From Gemmatimonadales bacterium (GTDB lineage: Bacteria > Gemmatimonadota > Gemmatimonadetes > Gemmatimonadales > GWC2-71-9): DNA of 64,000 nt. The position numbers were made by a program, and so were the translations under genes. Below are positions 29,272 to 36,532 of the stretch, piece after piece; positions within the stretch are counted from its first letter, which is position 1; every line of letters starts with the position of its first letter. The stretch spans positions 303,551 through 367,550 of the forward strand of contig JASNZF010000001.1 in the NCBI GenBank assembly GCA_048499805.1, in the 5' to 3' direction. Under the pieces are notes generated by a model, which did no database searches, was not told where the DNA came from, and saw only the letters and a list, made by a program, of their open reading frames with translations.

Positions 29272-30501
29272 CTAGAAGGGAGGAGTGAGAAGGGAGAAGC
29301 CGGCTGTCCCTCTGGACCGCTGGCGGGGTGCTGTCGCCCGCGCCTGGTCATGCTGCTCGCTGCTCCCTTCTCGCTGCTCCCTTTGGATGGCATCCACGGC
29401 CCGCTGCACCACCACCTCCCGGGTCGGGGGTGGCTGCCACAGGTCGAGCTGCAGGTTGGCCTCGATGAGGTGGTCCACCGTCACGGTGACCGTGCGCACG
29501 GCCACCCGCCGGGCCAGCGCCCGGTCCAGCAGCTGGCGCGCCGCGCTCCACAGCTCCAGGTCGAGGGTGGATTCGGGCAGTGTCGTGGCGTGGCTGGCCG
29601 TCGTGTGGTCGGCATGCTCCACCGCCACGGCAATTCGCCGGGCGGCCAGGGTGCGCCGGCGGAGGCGACTGCCGAGCTGCTCGGCCAGGCGCCGCAGCAG
29701 CGGATGCAGGACCGCCCGGTCATTGGTGTCGGTGGCCAGGGTGTGGTTGGCGCGGAACTCGGCCCGGACCTCGGGCGGGAGCACGGGACGAGGATCCACG
29801 CCACGCGCCTGTTGCCGAAGCAGGACCCCGCGTCGGCCGAACACGGCGCAGAGGTCGGCCTCGCGGATCACGGCCACCTCCCCCACCCGACAGAGGTGGT
29901 ACTCGTCGAGCCGGGTCCGGATGTCGGTCGGGAGGTCGGGCAGGACTTCGAGCACCTGTGGCGCCAGGAACCTCGCCTCCTCACCCCGCCGGACCTCGAT
30001 GAGCGGCGACGGCGCCGCCAGCCGACCGACCCGGGTGGCCGCCTCGCTCACCAGCTTGTTCACCGCCACCCCGACCGTCAGGGGGAGCCGCATGCGGGTC
30101 CTGGCCTCGCGCGTGATCCGGGCGGCCACGTCCACCGCCGGGCCAAAGAGCCGGGTGGTGCCGGTCAGGTCCAGGAAGGCGTGGCCATAGCCGTGCGGCT
30201 CAATGACCGGGGCGTAGACCCGGAGGACCTCGTGCAGGGCGCGCGAGGCGCGCGAGTACAGCCGGGGATTGGGAGGCAGCAACAGCAGGTCGGGGCATCG
30301 CTTGCGGGCCAGTCGCACGGCCATGCCTCGCTCGAGGCCGGCTGCGCGGGCCTCCGGGGAGAGGGCCAGAATCGTGGCCCGGTCTGCACCCGGTGCGGCG
30401 ACCGCCACCGGGCGGCCGCGCAGTGCCGGCGCCACCAGTGCCTCGACGGTGGTGCAGAAGGCCGGGGGGTCGATGTAGAGGATGGATCGGGTCATATCCA
30501 T
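29272..30501 (-). CDS. Y-family DNA polymerase homolog, catalytically degenerate (DinB/ImuB-like)
   Basis: YIDPPAFCTTVE, RGRPVAV, LSPEARAAG, GVAVNKLV and a clamp-binding-like QLDLW. The SIDE catalytic motif reads GYGH. The start may be 30495. Confidence 0.85.
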   Translation of the reverse strand: MDMTRSILYIDPPAFCTTVEALVAPALRGRPVAVAAPGADRATILALSPEARAAGLERGMAVRLARKRCPDLLLLPPNPRLYSRASRALHEVLRVYAPVIEPHGYGHAFLDLTGTTRLFGPAVDVAARITREARTRMRLPLTVGVAVNKLVSEAATRVGRLAAPSPLIEVRRGEEARFLAPQVLEVLPDLPTDIRTRLDEYHLCRVGEVAVIREADLCAVFGRRGVLLRQQARGVDPRPVLPPEVRAEFRANHTLATDTNDRAVLHPLLRRLAEQLGSRLRRRTLAARRIAVAVEHADHTTASHATTLPESTLDLELWSAARQLLDRALARRVAVRTVTVTVDHLIEANLQLDLWQPPPTREVVVQRAVDAIQREQREGSSEQHDQARATAPRQRSRGTAGFSLLTPPF

Positions 30502-30503
30502 GA

Positions 30504-30520
30504 CTTCGGTGTTTGTTCGG
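30504..30520. promoter_or_regulatory. Candidate LexA (SOS) box at the promoter of the Y-family polymerase
   Basis: CTTCGGTGTTTGTTCGG, i.e. CTTC-N7-GTTC, differing at one base from the site at 34905-34921. Confidence 0.65.
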
Positions 30521-33690: not shown

Positions 33691-34740
33691 CTACTCCGAA
33701 GGGCCGACGGCCGGATCCTCTCCCACGATGGCGGCCATCCTCCGGCGCAGTGCGTCCTGGTACGGGCGCCCCAGGTGCTGGCGGTGGCGATATCCTGCGG
33801 TGTACCGATCGACCAGTTCGGGAAACTCCTCCGCCAGGAGCGGGAGGAACCGGGCGCGGGCCGCCGGGTTGAGCCGGAGCGCCGACTCACGAACCCAGCG
33901 GGCTCCCGCCGCCCGCGCCGCCCGGACCAGCGCGGCCAATTGTTCCTTCGCGTCGGTGATGCCCGGCAGCACCGGCGCCAGCATCAGGCCGGTCGGGATA
34001 CCGGCATCGGCCAGGACCCGAAGCGCCCGGAGCCGGGCCCGGGGGGTTGGGGTGCGGGCTTCAAGACGCCGGAGCAGCGCCGGATCCAGCGCTGAGAGGG
34101 AGATGTGCACTGAGAGCCGGTGCTGCCGGCTCAACTGTGCCAGGAGATCCCGGTCACGGGCCACCAGCGGGGACTTCGTGATGATGCCAATGTGTAGCCC
34201 CTGGTAGCCCGCCAGCACCTCGAGGATCCCCCGGGTGACCCGGAATCGCCGCTCGGCGGGCTGATAGGGGTCGGTGGCGGTCCCGATGACCAGGGGGAGC
34301 CCACCGAGACGTGAGGGGTCCAAGGTGCGAGCCAGCACCCGTGGGGCGTCGCGCTTGACCAGGATCTGGGATTCAAAGGGGGGGCGGGAAGCAAGGGTGG
34401 CGCGACGACCGTTCGACGCAGGAGAGGTTGGCGACCAACACCGTGACGCCGCCCGATCCCCACGCACACCCAAGCTTGCACCCATACTAACCTCATTGGC
34501 CGCCGCACGCCTCTCCAGGGCCCAGCGATGGGTATCCCGGGCATAGCAGTAGCTGCAGCCGAACTCGCAGCCAATAAAGGGGTTAAGTGACCAGAACTGC
34601 ATCCCGGTGGTGGCCGGCGGATTGAGCACCCGGCCGGTCGGGAGGCCCACGAAGGCGGTTCCCCGCCCCCGCTCCTCCAGCAGCGGCCAGGGCGGGGGGC
34701 CCTCCTCCAGCGTCAACCGGAACTGGGGGTCCTGACTCAC
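33691..34740 (-). CDS. Radical SAM protein, spore photoproduct lyase-like (Rv2578c/PA0069-type)
   Basis: LNPFIGCEFGCSYCYAR (CxxxCxxC), IGTATDPYQPAERRFRVTR, IITKSPLVARD, RRLEARTPTP and APVLPGITD. Start reassigned to GTG 34740, which overlaps the upstream stop. Confidence 0.92.
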   Translation of the reverse strand: MSQDPQFRLTLEEGPPPWPLLEERGRGTAFVGLPTGRVLNPPATTGMQFWSLNPFIGCEFGCSYCYARDTHRWALERRAAANEVSMGASLGVRGDRAASRCWSPTSPASNGRRATLASRPPFESQILVKRDAPRVLARTLDPSRLGGLPLVIGTATDPYQPAERRFRVTRGILEVLAGYQGLHIGIITKSPLVARDRDLLAQLSRQHRLSVHISLSALDPALLRRLEARTPTPRARLRALRVLADAGIPTGLMLAPVLPGITDAKEQLAALVRAARAAGARWVRESALRLNPAARARFLPLLAEEFPELVDRYTAGYRHRQHLGRPYQDALRRRMAAIVGEDPAVGPSE

Positions 34741-34889
34741 CCGCAGCGCCCCCAGCCACAGCAAAGACAGTGGAGGCACCCGGAGTTGCGCGCCACCGGG
34801 CCGGCGCACTCCGGGCAGACCCGGATCAGCGGGGCGGTCAGGGGATTGGGGCTGGAACTGCTCGATTCGCTCGGTGTCCGCGGTTCCAT
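34737..34889 (-). CDS. 50-aa Zn-ribbon protein resembling the C-terminal Zn finger of class II ribonucleotide reductases
   Basis: GAAGGAAGG then ATG 34889. MEPRTPSESSSSSPNPLTAPLIRVCPECAGPVARNSGCLHCLCCGWGRCG. GTGA overlap with the radical SAM gene. Confidence 0.7.
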   Translation of the reverse strand: MEPRTPSESSSSSPNPLTAPLIRVCPECAGPVARNSGCLHCLCCGWGRCG

Positions 34890-34904
34890 CGTGCACCGGC
34901 CTTC

Positions 34905-34948
34905 CTTCGGTGTATGTTCGGCTTGACGTAACCGAAGATACACCGAAG
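34905..34948. promoter_or_regulatory. Two inverted candidate LexA boxes
   Basis: CTTCGGTGTATGTTCGG (34905-34921) and CCGAAGATACACCGAAG (34932-34948) form a 17-bp inverted repeat with one mismatch. Each site is CTTC-N7-(G/C)TTC. Confidence 0.68.
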
Positions 34949-34964
34949 CTGGTGCCGGTGTCAA
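34935..34964 (-). promoter_or_regulatory. Sigma70 promoter for the Zn-ribbon/radical SAM operon
   Basis: Minus strand TTGACA (34964-34959), N18, TATCTT (34940-34935). The -10 lies inside the second box. Confidence 0.65.
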
Positions 34965-35029: not shown

Positions 35030-35479
35030 ATGACCGGGAATCAACCGATCCAGAATGGCAGGGCGGAGCCGTTCCTCGGCAACCTCCACCGAAGTGTCGG
35101 GGTGGCCGCCCTGATCCTGTTCATCGGCACCGGGGCCTGGATGCACTTCCGCTACGACCATCTCCGCGGGATGACTGACGCCACCCGCCTGCTCTTTCGC
35201 TCCACCCACATCTACCTGCTCCTCGCCGCCTTGCTCAATGTGGCGATGGGCCTGGGATACCGGGCAGCGCCAGGGGGCTGGCCAGCGGTACTCCAGCGGA
35301 TCGGGTCGGCGCTGCTCCTGCTCACCCCCCTGCTGTTTCTTGCCGGCTTCCTCAGCGAGCCCTGGCTCGGCGACCTCCAGCGCCCCTGGTCTCGACCCGG
35401 CATCTATGCCTGCCTGGCCGGCGTACTGCTGCACCTGATCGCACAGGGATTGGGACGAGAATCCCCAGGGGCCGACTGA
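35030..35479 (+). CDS. Hypothetical membrane protein (about 4 TM)
   Basis: AGGAGG then ATG 35030. Hydrophobic helices with several His residues (LHRSVG, WMHF, THIY, LLHL). Confidence 0.7.
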   Translation: MTGNQPIQNGRAEPFLGNLHRSVGVAALILFIGTGAWMHFRYDHLRGMTDATRLLFRSTHIYLLLAALLNVAMGLGYRAAPGGWPAVLQRIGSALLLLTPLLFLAGFLSEPWLGDLQRPWSRPGIYACLAGVLLHLIAQGLGRESPGAD

Positions 35480-35497
35480 CCCCAAGCGGTGAGACTT

Positions 35498-35625
35498 CCC
35501 CCACCCCCCACCCCCCACTCCCCCTCACCCAGCCACCGCCCCCAGCCCCCAGTCCCCAGTCCCCAGTCCCCAGCCCCGACACCCGATACCCGATACCTAT
35601 TCCCTATTCCCCACTCCTCCCCAAT
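35498..35625. repeat. C-rich heptamer tandem array (G-rich on the minus strand)
   Basis: CCCCCAC x3, CCCCAGT x3 (35547-35567), CCCCAGC, ACCCGAT x2 and CCTATTC x2. Confidence 0.85.
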
Positions 35626-35635
35626 CTTCCCTCTC

Positions 35636-36532
35636 ATGCCTACCCCGGACCACGAAGCGATGGCCGCCACGCTCGAGGCGACTGGACGCTACCAGGTGCT
35701 CCGTCGCCTCGAGCCCACCCGCCGGTGGCACGAGCCGGACGGTGCCGAGCTCAAGACCGCCGTCGTGGTCGACGTCGAGACGACCGGCCTCGACCAGGAT
35801 CGCGATGCCATCATCCAGTTCTGTGGCATTCCCTTCACCTATGCCCCGGCGACGGGACGGATCTACGAGGCCGGAGCGCCCCTGACCGGATTTGATGATC
35901 CCCAGCGGCCCATCCCGCCCCTGATCACCGCGCTCACCGGGATTACCGACGCCGATGTGGCGGGCCAGCGCCTGGACGAGGGCGCGATCGCCGCCCTGCT
36001 GGAACCGGCGGTGCTGGTCATTGCCCATAATGCCGGCTTCGACCGGCCGTTCATCGATGCCCGCCTCGCCGGGCCATTCCGGGACAAGCACTGGGCCTGC
36101 TCGGTGGAGGGGATTCCGTGGCAGCAGTACGGCTTCAAGTCGCGCAGCCTGGAATTCCTGATGTACCGGCGCCACCAGATGTTCTTCGATGCCCACTCCG
36201 CCGAGGCCGACTGCCAGGCGCTCCTCCATGCGCTCGCGATGCCGTTCGAGGATGGGGCGCTGCCGATGGGGCTACTGCTGGAGGGAGCCCGCCGCCGGAC
36301 GGTCCGGATCTGGGCGATCGGCTCGCCGATCGAGCAGAAGGACATGCTCAAGGCGCGGCGCTATCGCTTCAATGGTGGGCAGGACGGGCGTCCCAAGGCG
36401 TGGTTCTGCGAACTGCCGGAGGGCGAGGAAAGCGAGGCGGAGCTGGCCTGGCTGCGGGAGAACATCTACGGGGGCCGGGACGGTTGGAAACTCGAAAAGG
36501 TGGATCCCCGGACCCGCTACGCCCGCGGATAG
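35636..36532 (+). CDS. DEDDh 3'-5' exonuclease (DnaQ/epsilon-like)
   Basis: VVVDVETTGLD (ExoI), IAHNAGFDRPF (ExoII) and HSAEADC (ExoIII). Confidence 0.9.
   Translation: MPTPDHEAMAATLEATGRYQVLRRLEPTRRWHEPDGAELKTAVVVDVETTGLDQDRDAIIQFCGIPFTYAPATGRIYEAGAPLTGFDDPQRPIPPLITALTGITDADVAGQRLDEGAIAALLEPAVLVIAHNAGFDRPFIDARLAGPFRDKHWACSVEGIPWQQYGFKSRSLEFLMYRRHQMFFDAHSAEADCQALLHALAMPFEDGALPMGLLLEGARRRTVRIWAIGSPIEQKDMLKARRYRFNGGQDGRPKAWFCELPEGEESEAELAWLRENIYGGRDGWKLEKVDPRTRYARG

Follow-up and report, generated by a model that had tools for sequence, protein, structure and literature searches.

A free-standing homologue of the NrdJ C-terminal tail encoded with a putatively LexA-repressed radical SAM enzyme in Gemmatimonadales

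The stretch of 64,000 nucleotides from a Gemmatimonadales genome that was analysed here (the window) carries, directly ahead of a gene for a radical SAM enzyme with a fold like that of spore photoproduct lyase (SPL), a 50-codon ORF which, judging from its sequence and those of its relatives, is a real protein-coding gene overlooked by gene calls (Table 1). The same comparisons indicate that the encoded microprotein, which stands free, is homologous to the very C-terminal tail of the class II ribonucleotide reductase NrdJ. There is, in our estimate, an even chance that it acts as a trans-acting zinc-ribbon subunit, whose Cys pair would donate a hydrogen atom or an electron to what would be a LexA-repressed radical SAM repair enzyme. 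All the elements that an earlier note had described at this locus, namely the ORF with its Shine-Dalgarno sequence, the stop overlapping the GTG of the radical SAM gene, and a doubly boxed promoter, are present in the sequence.

Table 1. Coordinates of the gene pair and its surroundings, as positions of the window.
Feature	Position	Strand	Remarks
Radical SAM gene	33691..34740	-	349 aa from GTG; PF04055; SPL-like fold
GTGA overlap	34737..34740	-	microprotein stop / radical SAM GTG start; putative translational coupling
Microprotein gene	34737..34889	-	50 codons + TGA; MEPRTPSESSSSSPNPLTAPLIRVCPECAGPVARNSGCLHCLCCGWGRCG; ATG 34889-34887, TGA 34739-34737
Putative zinc ribbon coding region	34740..34817	-	CPECAGPVARNSGCLHCLCCGWGRCG; C25, C28, C38, C41, C44, C49
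Spurious 52-codon N-terminal extension of radical SAM ORF	34741..34896	-	public 401-aa call; masks microprotein gene
Shine-Dalgarno-like GGAAGG	34900..34905	-	10 nt upstream of ATG; from sequence only
Proximal putative SOS (LexA) box	34906..34921	.	TTCGGTGTATGTTCGG on + strand; between predicted transcription start and ribosome-binding site
Distal putative SOS (LexA) box	34932..34947	.	TTCGGTGTATCTTCGG on - strand; overlaps -10 hexamer
Sigma-70-like promoter	34935..34964	-	TTGACA, 18-nt spacer, TATCTT
Divergent unit across boxed intergenic region	35030..36532	+	regulation by the boxes presumed

A gene concealed by an over-extended reading frame

The public collection for this contig holds the radical SAM protein only in a 401-aa version and contains neither the 50-aa nor the 349-aa product, in agreement with the proposal that a gene had been hidden by a mis-extended ORF call. 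Several observations rule out this longer version. In many relatives, a stop closes the radical SAM frame within or after the small ORF; GC3 is 0.73 in the extension frame vs 0.84 in the frame of the small ORF; and conservation within the radical SAM family sets in about 16 residues past the GTG of the 349-aa protein. The small-ORF frame also bears a coding signature, as its mean entropy across 40 species is 0.63, 0.66 and 1.31 at the first, second and third codon positions, respectively, the variation falling mostly at the third, and the codons of its six cysteines alternate between TGC and TGT while the amino acid is invariant. In addition, the alternative GTG at 34896 lies only 3 nt downstream of the SD-like GGAAGG. 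An even longer reading of the small ORF, a 75-aa version with a TTG start, is not the gene, its start falling inside the -35 hexamer.

The small ORF is conserved, a point on which the earlier note had let its proposal stand or fall. Of 125 genomes sampled from the Gemmatimonadales family to which the window belongs, 107 contain it, and it precedes the radical SAM gene at 42 of the approximately 64 Gemmatimonadota species loci, its end in relatives being always six residues past the fifth Cys; it has also been called independently, as a gene of 42-72 aa, in many metagenomes. A chance open frame within the N-terminus of a 401-aa protein, although that frame is indeed open and is the one reported by gene callers, is hardly credible because the same small ORF recurs across the family genomes, and the coding signature, the stops in relatives, the late onset of radical SAM conservation and the poor spacing of GTG 34896 all speak against it. 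The locus clearly exemplifies how, in a genome of high GC content, a conserved microprotein can vanish from annotation when a neighbouring ORF is extended too far.

Residues 1-24 of the microprotein are variable, Pro/Ser-rich and predicted to be disordered, while residues 25-50 would form the six-Cys zinc ribbon. Its AlphaFold2 model shows three short strands (31-35, 38-41 and 47-49), with a pLDDT of 56-62 at residues 1-20 and of 80-87 at residues 21-50. Nine residues are invariant in 35 microprotein sequences (C25, P26, C28, C38, C41, C44, G45, W46 and C49) and persist down to 29% identity; one copy, in genome G063, is without the first CxxC.

Homology to the C-terminal tail of NrdJ

The cysteines of the microprotein form the array CxxC-x9-CxxCxxC-x4-CG-end (C25, C28, C38, C41, C44 and C49 of 50 residues), and the resemblance to NrdJ tails that had been noticed beforehand proves to be better described as true homology. 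Positions 730-759 of the 759 of NCBIfam NF006417 match the microprotein with E=5.9e-5, and the profile of the microprotein family, searched against 1.84 billion proteins, retrieves NrdJ C-termini at E about 1e-8 to 1e-9; these matches were confirmed as Ribonuc_red_lgC + TSCPD proteins. Furthermore, the microprotein aligns over 34 residues, with no gap, to the end of this genome's own NrdJ, which is encoded on another contig and terminates in CPDCGSQLEFAEGCAKCHVCGFSECG, with identical Cys spacing and the same C-terminal CG. No reductase-like gene was found adjacent to the microprotein gene, and its product is a stand-alone protein of 50 aa that includes no RNR chain. A fold search with the microprotein model retrieved only generic zinc ribbons, all non-significant (E>0.7).

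The closest known counterpart is the six-Cys zinc finger at the end of the cysteine-rich domain (CRD) of NrdJ, as in S. nassauensis NrdJd, whose cysteines occupy positions 920/923/933/936/939/945 of 947 (Loderer et al. 2017, PMC5704485). All six are required for turnover, two of them being proposed as a shuttle; the domain holds Zn, as found by ICP; and the truncated enzyme did not regain activity when the isolated CRD was supplied separately (PMC5704485). The physiological reductant of the NrdJ Cys-rich tail was not found (PMC5704485). By analogy with this protein, C25, C28, C41 and C44 of the microprotein would bind Zn, and C38 and C49 would be a free pair (PMC5704485). The likeness extends to the whole array (CxxC-x9-CxxCxxC-x4/5-C, ending one or two residues before the C-terminus), to the significant profile similarity, to the same predicted small zinc-ribbon fold and to the association with a radical enzyme acting on nucleic-acid building blocks. 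In contrast to the NrdJ tail, the microprotein is free-standing, with neither a reductase barrel nor a preceding TSCPD/IscU-like domain, it is encoded with, and apparently serves, a radical SAM enzyme, and it is putatively SOS-regulated. In addition, W46 and P26 are invariant in the microprotein, at sites where F or S is common in NrdJ tails. A zinc-finger tail apart from the catalytic subunit has a precedent in the split class II reductases, where it is carried on a separate chain, NrdJb; however, NrdJb is larger, has an IscU-like domain and partners NrdJa instead of a radical SAM enzyme (PMC9669993).

The radical SAM enzyme

The only Pfam domain found in the enzyme is the radical SAM core (PF04055, 9e-15), and its CxxxCxxC motif (C58/C62/C65) is invariant in 75 sequences. 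Its best NCBIfam matches are PA0069 (NF033668; 211 bits, cut-off 360) and Rv2578c (NF038135; 200 bits, cut-off 430). The assignment to the Rv2578c family made in the earlier note therefore holds insofar as this family is among the two best matches, but the score falls below the curated cut-offs of both. The enzyme likewise stays under the cut-offs of the spore photoproduct lyase families (TIGR04070, 19.9 bits for a cut-off of 400; PF20903, 12.5 bits for a cut-off of 27). Its AlphaFold2 model has a pLDDT of 89, with a variable low-confidence insertion at about residues 85-120, and its closest PDB fold is the spore photoproduct lyase 4FHC (E=7e-7, TM 0.57 over 346 columns), followed by other radical SAM enzymes, whose E values are no better than 4e-5. 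A PDB sequence search with the enzyme gave no match, and family scans showed no SPASM/twitch or peptide-recognition domain.

The enzyme thus resembles the SplB (4FHC), PA0069 and Rv2578c proteins in its nearest solved fold, in its CxxxCxxC motif and in its best family matches. It differs from SPL itself in that the identity is only 14% and that the hydrogen-donor Cys of SPL has no conserved equivalent, and from all three in its six-Cys partner gene, which is unique to the enzyme described here. In spore photoproduct lyase, this hydrogen donor is Cys140, which acts in cis; we take PDB entry 4RH0 (C140A/S76C) to reflect that the position of the hydrogen-donor Cys has moved within the SPL family.

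Putative SOS control of the pair

The two boxes ahead of the microprotein gene are 16-mers of the form TTCGG-N6-TTCGG and are mutually inverted. The same motif lies upstream of lexA (twice), recA, ssb, a dnaE2-like gene and a Y-polymerase/tag unit, and occurs at 20 sites in the genome vs 7.8 expected. It is therefore very probably the LexA box, and the SOS-like control suggested by the earlier note is bioinformatically well supported. The promoter-like site that the distal box overlaps has 10/12 matches and is the sole such site in 1.7 kb, vs 0.2 expected, and in relatives a box is kept directly ahead of the small-ORF start. Such regulation would agree with that of the SplB, PA0069 and Rv2578c genes of other phyla, which belong to the LexA regulon, splB and PA0069 being known SOS genes in other organisms (PMC8565304; bioRxiv 10.1101/2022.03.14.484287). 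The open-access papers searched contained no description of a Gemmatimonadota LexA box.

Across the boxed intergenic region, the divergent unit comprises a 149-aa protein with no Pfam hit (35030-35479) and an RNase_T-type exonuclease (35636-36532), and both genes are also neighbours of the pair in one relative (L007). The neighbours of the pair are DNA repair genes, with neither a protease nor an exporter among them.

Linkage and distribution

The proposed partnership of the two genes finds support in their coupling, in their joint occurrence and in their joint loss. Of 20 loci identified through the small ORF, 19 have a radical SAM gene downstream on the same strand; conversely, each enzyme of the partnered clade that could be evaluated is accompanied by the small ORF. 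Of 53 adjacent pairs in relatives, 42 have an in-frame radical SAM start that lies over the final codons of the small ORF and 11 have gaps of 3-68 nt, and the pair stays together across differing neighbourhoods. Among the 18 family genomes with no intact ORF, 10 have no radical SAM gene either. Two genomes (G180 and G088) lack the small ORF but have the SOS box and encode a Cys-poor radical SAM enzyme, and in a third (G238) no radical SAM gene lies within 3.5 kb of the small ORF. Nor are the two genes strictly coupled in translation everywhere, since in several genera DinB-family and other genes sit between them. The search for ribbon/radical SAM fusion proteins yielded no robust case: an apparent fusion (L019) results from a 1-nt frameshift inside the ribbon, and a read-through into the enzyme (P0116) has lost the fourth Cys in a contig-end fragment and may be an error.

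Outside the window's family, almost no genome has the small ORF, and at Gemmatimonadaceae-type and non-Gemmatimonadota loci it was not found even by a six-frame profile search. The expectation that it would accompany Rv2578c-family genes generally was thus not borne out; as a general feature of the Rv2578c/PA0069 families it can be discarded, being confined essentially to one Gemmatimonadales family of soil bacteria. NrdJ with its own tail is found throughout the phylum, while only genomes with the Cys-poor enzyme clade have the small ORF. Distant stand-alone relatives of the microprotein occur in unrelated contexts, one of them prophage-like. In the open-access papers searched, we found no description of a partner of SplB, PA0069 or Rv2578c.

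The cysteine content of the enzymes differs between these groups. In the 42 partnered enzymes, only the Cys of the CxxxCxxC triad are conserved, and many of them have exactly three Cys in total. In contrast, the 24 partner-less enzymes of Gemmatimonadota have conserved Cys at three further columns (62%, 83% and 92%), and the 15 enzymes of other phyla have them at three columns (80%, 47% and 53%); two family genomes with no small ORF (G037 and G076) have the Cys-bearing enzyme type. The microprotein thus probably supplies cysteines that the partnered enzyme lacks, although this complementarity could be a clade effect, with few evolutionary events behind it.

Proposed function and alternatives

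In the mechanism that we propose, the microprotein would be the first gene product of a LexA-repressed two-gene operon, coupled through the GTGA overlap to an SPL-like radical SAM enzyme that would belong to the SOS-regulated SplB/PA0069/Rv2578c group, and would be a stoichiometric subunit of this enzyme. C25, C28, C41 and C44 would hold a zinc ion, as in NrdJ, and the resulting fold would offer C38 and C49, the latter beside the C-terminal Gly, to the active site of the enzyme. There, the C38/C49 pair may donate the hydrogen atom or electron with which radical repair is completed, in a role comparable to that of Cys140 of SPL, which acts in cis, and to that of the NrdJ tail at the active site of the reductase. 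The thiyl or disulfide so formed would be re-reduced by the cell. The physical complex, the identity of the metal and the thiol-donor chemistry are what we infer from these comparisons. A wider reading, in which a radical SAM DNA repair enzyme recruited an RNR-type redox tail as a separate subunit, a detachable catalytic cysteine module, is possible but on balance doubtful.

The microprotein could instead be an accessory subunit that takes no part in thiol chemistry, with a ribbon that helps to bind or flip the damaged DNA or stabilises the enzyme and with two extra Cys that are structural; we consider this rather unlikely. The linkage evidence would fit any kind of subunit, G180 and G088 do without the microprotein, and many of the generic zinc ribbons retrieved by the fold search are nucleic-acid-binding (ribosomal proteins, TFS4, PriA). 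However, six invariant Cys are more than the four that a zinc site needs, the specific homologue is a redox tail that needs all six for turnover, and the complementary loss of Cys in the enzyme would be left unexplained.

The earlier note had favoured a dedicated redox or metal partner, pointing to the need of radical SAM enzymes for an electron donor. Radical SAM enzymes do require a low-potential reductant, but rubredoxin-type centres are far too high in potential for their cluster, and flavodoxin or ferredoxin are the usual reductants. A rubredoxin-like or Fe-S carrier reducing the [4Fe-4S] cluster of the enzyme, or an auxiliary cluster supplied in trans, is therefore improbable, even if CxxC...CxxC arrays are able to bind Fe and the approximately three extra conserved Cys of each partner-less clade are the number expected for an auxiliary cluster. 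The homologous NrdJ domain, moreover, holds Zn, and because this tail shuttles a dithiol, a thiol or hydrogen-atom donor fits better than an electron donor (PMC5704485).

It is quite improbable that the microprotein works independently of the radical SAM enzyme, either as an SOS-induced mimic of the NrdJ tail that modulates the reductase and thereby dNTP supply or as an inhibitor of division or replication. A parallel for such mimicry exists in Sml1 and the tail of yeast RNR. The microprotein is SOS-boxed and homologous to the NrdJ tail of the same genome, G238 retains it with no adjacent radical SAM gene, and its distant relatives stand alone. Nevertheless, the stop/start overlap is the rule, both genes have been lost together in ten genomes, and the small ORF is confined to the Cys-poor enzyme clade even though tailed NrdJ spans the phylum.

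A short Cys-rich gene directly ahead of a radical SAM gene is also the classic arrangement of a ribosomal precursor peptide and its modifying enzyme, as in the six-cysteine SCIFF/ranthipeptide-type systems, but this explanation is very improbable here: the enzyme, unlike SCIFF maturases, has no SPASM domain, its nearest fold is a DNA repair lyase, the operon is LexA-boxed in a repair context that offers no protease or exporter, and the microprotein is homologous to an enzyme tail and shows no sequence relation to SCIFF in family scans.

Implications

The widespread, biochemically uncharacterised SplB-like genes of the SOS regulon are a conserved part of the damage response, as PA0069 in Pseudomonas, Rv2578c in mycobacteria and splB across many phyla. 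The pair described here amounts to a natural experiment, in which a clade of these enzymes with no Cys of its own beyond the cluster ligands appears to have gained the six-Cys tail of a reductase as a co-translated protein of 50 residues. As a small, expressible two-protein system, it would allow the role of thiols in this enzyme family to be tested, together with the NrdJ zinc finger as a self-contained thiol shuttle. If the wider reading, of a recruited RNR-type redox tail, is true, this SplB-like branch would act on a DNA lesion by a reductive chemistry that consumes thiols, as in RNR, instead of the redox-neutral reaction of SPL, and the zinc-finger tail of NrdJ would be a portable thiol-delivery device.

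A small cysteine-rich gene overlaps the start of the radical SAM gene

The 50-aa ORF, its stop overlapping the GTG of the radical SAM gene and the doubly boxed promoter described in the earlier note were all found in the sequence. A 75-aa version starting at a TTG was rejected: this TTG is the -35 hexamer of the promoter and, therefore, the longer version is not the gene.

Features of the microprotein/radical SAM operon, TTCGG-N6-TTCGG boxes and inserted genes (window positions unless a contig, C, or a locus of a relative, L, is named)
Feature	Position	Strand	Remark
Microprotein gene	ATG 34889, TGA 34739-34737	-	50 codons; product MEPRTPSESSSSSPNPLTAPLIRVCPECAGPVARNSGCLHCLCCGWGRCG
GTGA overlap	34740-34737	-	holds GTG start of 349-aa radical SAM protein
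Radical SAM gene, 349 aa	33691-34740	-	
401-aa ORF	from GTG 34896	-	radical SAM frame open upstream; covers whole small ORF in a different frame
GGAAGG	10 nt 5' of microprotein ATG	-	
Sigma-70-like site TTGACA-18-TATCTT	34964-34935	-	1 site vs 0.2 expected
Box before operon, distal 16-mer	34932-34947		inverted relative to other copy; overlaps -10 hexamer
Box before operon, proximal 16-mer	34906-34921		between likely transcription start and ribosome site
Box before lexA	C7:94471 and 94499		two copies; distances to candidate starts 20 and 43 nt
Box before recA	C9:8119		
Box before ssb	C6:279576		
Box before PHP-domain dnaE2-like gene	C1:290585-290600		
Box before Y-family polymerase/tag unit (29272-30501)	30504-30519		
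Inserted DinB_2-like/ORF6N-like genes	L018:1224-2315, L078:1138-2422, L104, L118		

Several lines of coding evidence indicate that the small ORF is a genuine gene. A direct search with the 50-aa query retrieved two small proteins, one of 51 aa (67% identity) and one of 54 aa (58%), with calls on several metagenome contigs apiece. In both, the end of the gene overlaps the start of a Radical_SAM gene by 4 nt, and the neighbourhoods of the two differ. Among the best 80 loci encoding relatives of the radical SAM enzyme in species-representative genomes, almost all from Gemmatimonadota, 42 carry a Cys-rich ORF just upstream on the same strand, and one further copy is broken by a single frameshift. 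The 35 aligned products are 29-65% identical to the window protein, with C25, P26, C28, C38, C41, C44, G45, W46 and C49 invariant. Across the 26 ribbon codons of 40 species, the mean entropy is 0.63 at the first codon position, 0.66 at the second and 1.31 at the third, and each Cys codon alternates between TGC and TGT. In many relatives, the radical SAM frame meets a stop codon inside the small ORF or past its end, making the long extension impossible in those genomes. In the window, GC3 favours the small ORF (0.84 in its frame vs 0.73 in the overlapping one), and conservation across the radical SAM family sets in ~16 residues past the GTG at 34740. An exact-sequence look-up in the public collection returned the 401-aa call alone for the window contig and its close relatives; the 50-aa and 349-aa products are both absent. 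The gene was thus correctly suspected of being hidden by a mis-extended call, and a mere chance open frame is extremely improbable.

A candidate LexA operator upstream of the operon

The TTCGG-N6-TTCGG box occurs at 20 sites in the genome (3.9 Mb), where base composition would predict ~8; those listed in the table are the copies in AT-richer promoter contexts. In relatives, the box is found in either orientation directly 5' of the small-ORF start. Common to lexA, recA and ssb, it very probably serves this Gemmatimonadales lineage as LexA operator, in agreement with the SOS-like control previously proposed for the pair. It looks like the mark of a small regulon composed of lexA, recA, ssb, the dnaE2-like gene, the Y-polymerase/tag unit and the microprotein/radical SAM operon. 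We found no description of such a LexA operator in these bacteria in the open-access literature searched. SOS control of splB-like genes is well known (PMC8565304, PMC3765255); in P. aeruginosa, PA0069 is one of the 15 SOS genes.

Divergent from the boxed intergenic region (35030-36532, + strand) are encoded a 149-aa protein without Pfam match and an RNase_T-type exonuclease. This pair likewise flanks the operon in one relative (L007), so both proteins may be part of the same damage response. The spacer between the two genes (35480-35630) contains short direct repeats (ccccagt three times, cccgata twice, and ttccctatt); if a long GTG-start ORF at 35489 were used, translation of this spacer would extend the N-terminus by a Pro-rich segment.

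Linkage and distribution

In 20 genomes from different genera that carry the small ORF, we looked for the radical SAM gene; 19 have it downstream on the same strand, with its CxxxCxxC codons 114-309 nt past the small-ORF stop in 16 of the 20; other genes are inserted between the two in two genomes. Considering 53 adjacent pairs, an in-frame enzyme start overlaps the last small-ORF codons in 42, and gaps of 3-68 nt separate the remaining 11. In a few genera, DinB-family (DinB_2-like) and ORF6N-like genes lie between the pair, enlarging the operon. We also examined the 18 genomes of the window's GTDB family without an intact small ORF. The radical SAM gene is also absent in 10 of them and lies at a contig end, and is thus uninformative, in three; two (G037, G076) have a Cys-bearing enzyme type, and two (G180, G088) combine a Cys-poor enzyme and the box with no small ORF. 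The last one (G063; L129:1064-1210) has a shortened copy without the first CxxC that keeps the second ribbon half (ACLNCPACGWGKCG), followed by an apparently intact radical SAM gene. Conversely, G238 has a small ORF but lacks a radical SAM gene within 3.5 kb of it; the only enzyme elsewhere in this genome is of a distant type. Given these exceptions and the inserted genes, together with the frequent pairing, the linkage is strong but not absolute.

The remaining one of the 19 genomes (G189; L111, G189:C1:7599-17982) has two microprotein-gene copies 5 kb apart: one is followed by the radical SAM gene, and the duplicate adjoins IS elements and looks like a recent duplication through transposition. 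There, IS elements (rve-type and IS30-type transposases) split the first copy from the operon.

In a six-frame profile search over 301 Gemmatimonadota genomes, the window's GTDB family typically shows one strong match in a short frame (E 1e-10 to 1e-20) and a second, weaker one (E ~1e-9) at the end of a ~850-aa frame, the tail of NrdJ, the class II (B12-dependent) ribonucleotide reductase. The short gene is present in 107 of the 125 genomes of this family, while other Gemmatimonadota families have the NrdJ match only, save for a few exceptions in one sister family. Against 1.84 billion representative proteins, the profile matched 2644 at E <= 1e-3. The best-ranked proteins are short (40-120 aa) and end in the domain; wherever the source names them, they are labelled hypothetical. 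In longer ones the domain is C-terminal, and those scanned are class II ribonucleotide reductases (Ribonuc_red_lgC and TSCPD). No Pfam family matches the small proteins, and from NCBIfam the microprotein matches the NrdJ model alone, with a score well short of its cut-off.

The profile also retrieved two repeat arrays of the small ribbon: a giant protein (P0003, 3932 aa) with 63 matched ribbon-motif stretches, and P0092 (404 aa), with five CPxC...CPxCGW units and acidic linkers between them. A distant 45-aa stand-alone relative (P0238, L102:4001-4138) lies in low-GC DNA amid many small ORFs, followed by a SNF2-type helicase gene, in a region that resembles a prophage and holds no radical SAM gene close by.

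Homology to the NrdJ tail

The likeness to NrdJ C-termini noted from the sequence alone is borne out by the HMM comparison: the last 30 positions of NF006417 (B12-dependent ribonucleotide reductase) match microprotein residues 21-50 (E=5.9e-5). The C-terminus of the same genome's NrdJ (...CPDCGSQLEFAEGCAKCHVCGFSECG) gives an ungapped alignment with residues 17-50, with CG as the last two residues of either chain. In Stackebrandtia nassauensis NrdJd, the six cysteines 920, 923, 933, 936, 939 and 945 of 947 residues are all needed for turnover with a bulky reductant, neither thioredoxin nor glutaredoxin acted as donor, and the domain binds zinc, with four proposed Zn ligands and a redox pair C933/C945 (PMC5704485). 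The zinc finger is found in 71% of dimeric class II enzymes and, in split ones, on its own chain, NrdJb (PMC9669993). Mapping by position, we infer that zinc would be held by C25/C28/C41/C44, leaving C38/C49 free as a pair. The AlphaFold2 model, built from the family alignment, has an N-terminal half predicted to be disordered, followed by a ribbon of three strands (pLDDT 80-87); a fold search with this model retrieved generic zinc ribbons only, none significant.

An SPL-like enzyme and complementary cysteines

A radical SAM core is present in the 349-aa protein. Among NCBIfam models, PA0069 (211 bits) and Rv2578c (200 bits) match it best, both under the curated cut-offs, and the nearest structure to its model (pLDDT 89; an insertion, residues ~85-120, is modelled with low confidence) is spore photoproduct lyase, SPL (4FHC; E=7e-7, TM 0.57 over the full length, 14% identity), with other radical SAM enzymes well behind. 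By modelled fold and context, the enzyme is thus predicted to work like an SPL-type DNA lyase; judged by those families' own thresholds, it falls outside the SPL, PA0069 and Rv2578c families. The insertion (window ~34380-34490) is hypervariable and follows the cluster-binding loop. Tandem peptide repeats (e.g. SPNRPIAQ, KDGRMEG, PSFQPSxLPS) fill it in three relatives (L018, L111, L127), and similar repeat DNA occupies intergenic spacers in these genomes.

Alignment of 81 enzymes showed that the 42 with the small ORF upstream have no conserved Cys beyond the cluster triad, many having exactly three Cys in total. The 24 partner-less Gemmatimonadota enzymes have three extra Cys columns (62%, 83% and 92%; GINCMPVLPG, GACALRLQ, KLCxKYG), and the 15 from other phyla have three (80%, 47% and 53%), one of them common to the partner-less Gemmatimonadota. 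Placed on the model, two of the extra columns (residues 254 and 286) map to adjacent strands of the barrel, and the third (residue 339) to the end of the final long helix. The pattern fits cysteines transferred to a separate chain, but, with few evolutionary events behind it, is no more than suggestive.

A proposed role for the microprotein

That the microprotein is a functional subunit of the radical SAM enzyme at all seems probable. More specifically, and with about even confidence, we propose a trans-acting subunit: its zinc-held ribbon would offer the C-terminal cysteine pair to an SPL-like enzyme without such cysteines of its own, this pair would act as hydrogen-atom or electron donor, and it would be re-reduced afterwards. 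A ribbon serving instead as a non-redox DNA-binding or structural element is unlikely, and an electron carrier based on Fe, or a trans-acting auxiliary cluster, is more doubtful. Still less probable is an independent SOS factor, such as a mimic of the NrdJ tail. A RiPP-type substrate peptide is very improbable, and this reading fails on the missing SPASM domain of the enzyme, the DNA-repair context and the homology of the peptide to an enzyme tail.

The domain, the enzyme group and the SOS control were each already known separately. The novelty of this proposed donor subunit lies in a NrdJ tail that stands free, in the fixed pairing of this tail with a repair enzyme of the radical SAM type and in cysteine patterns that complement each other.
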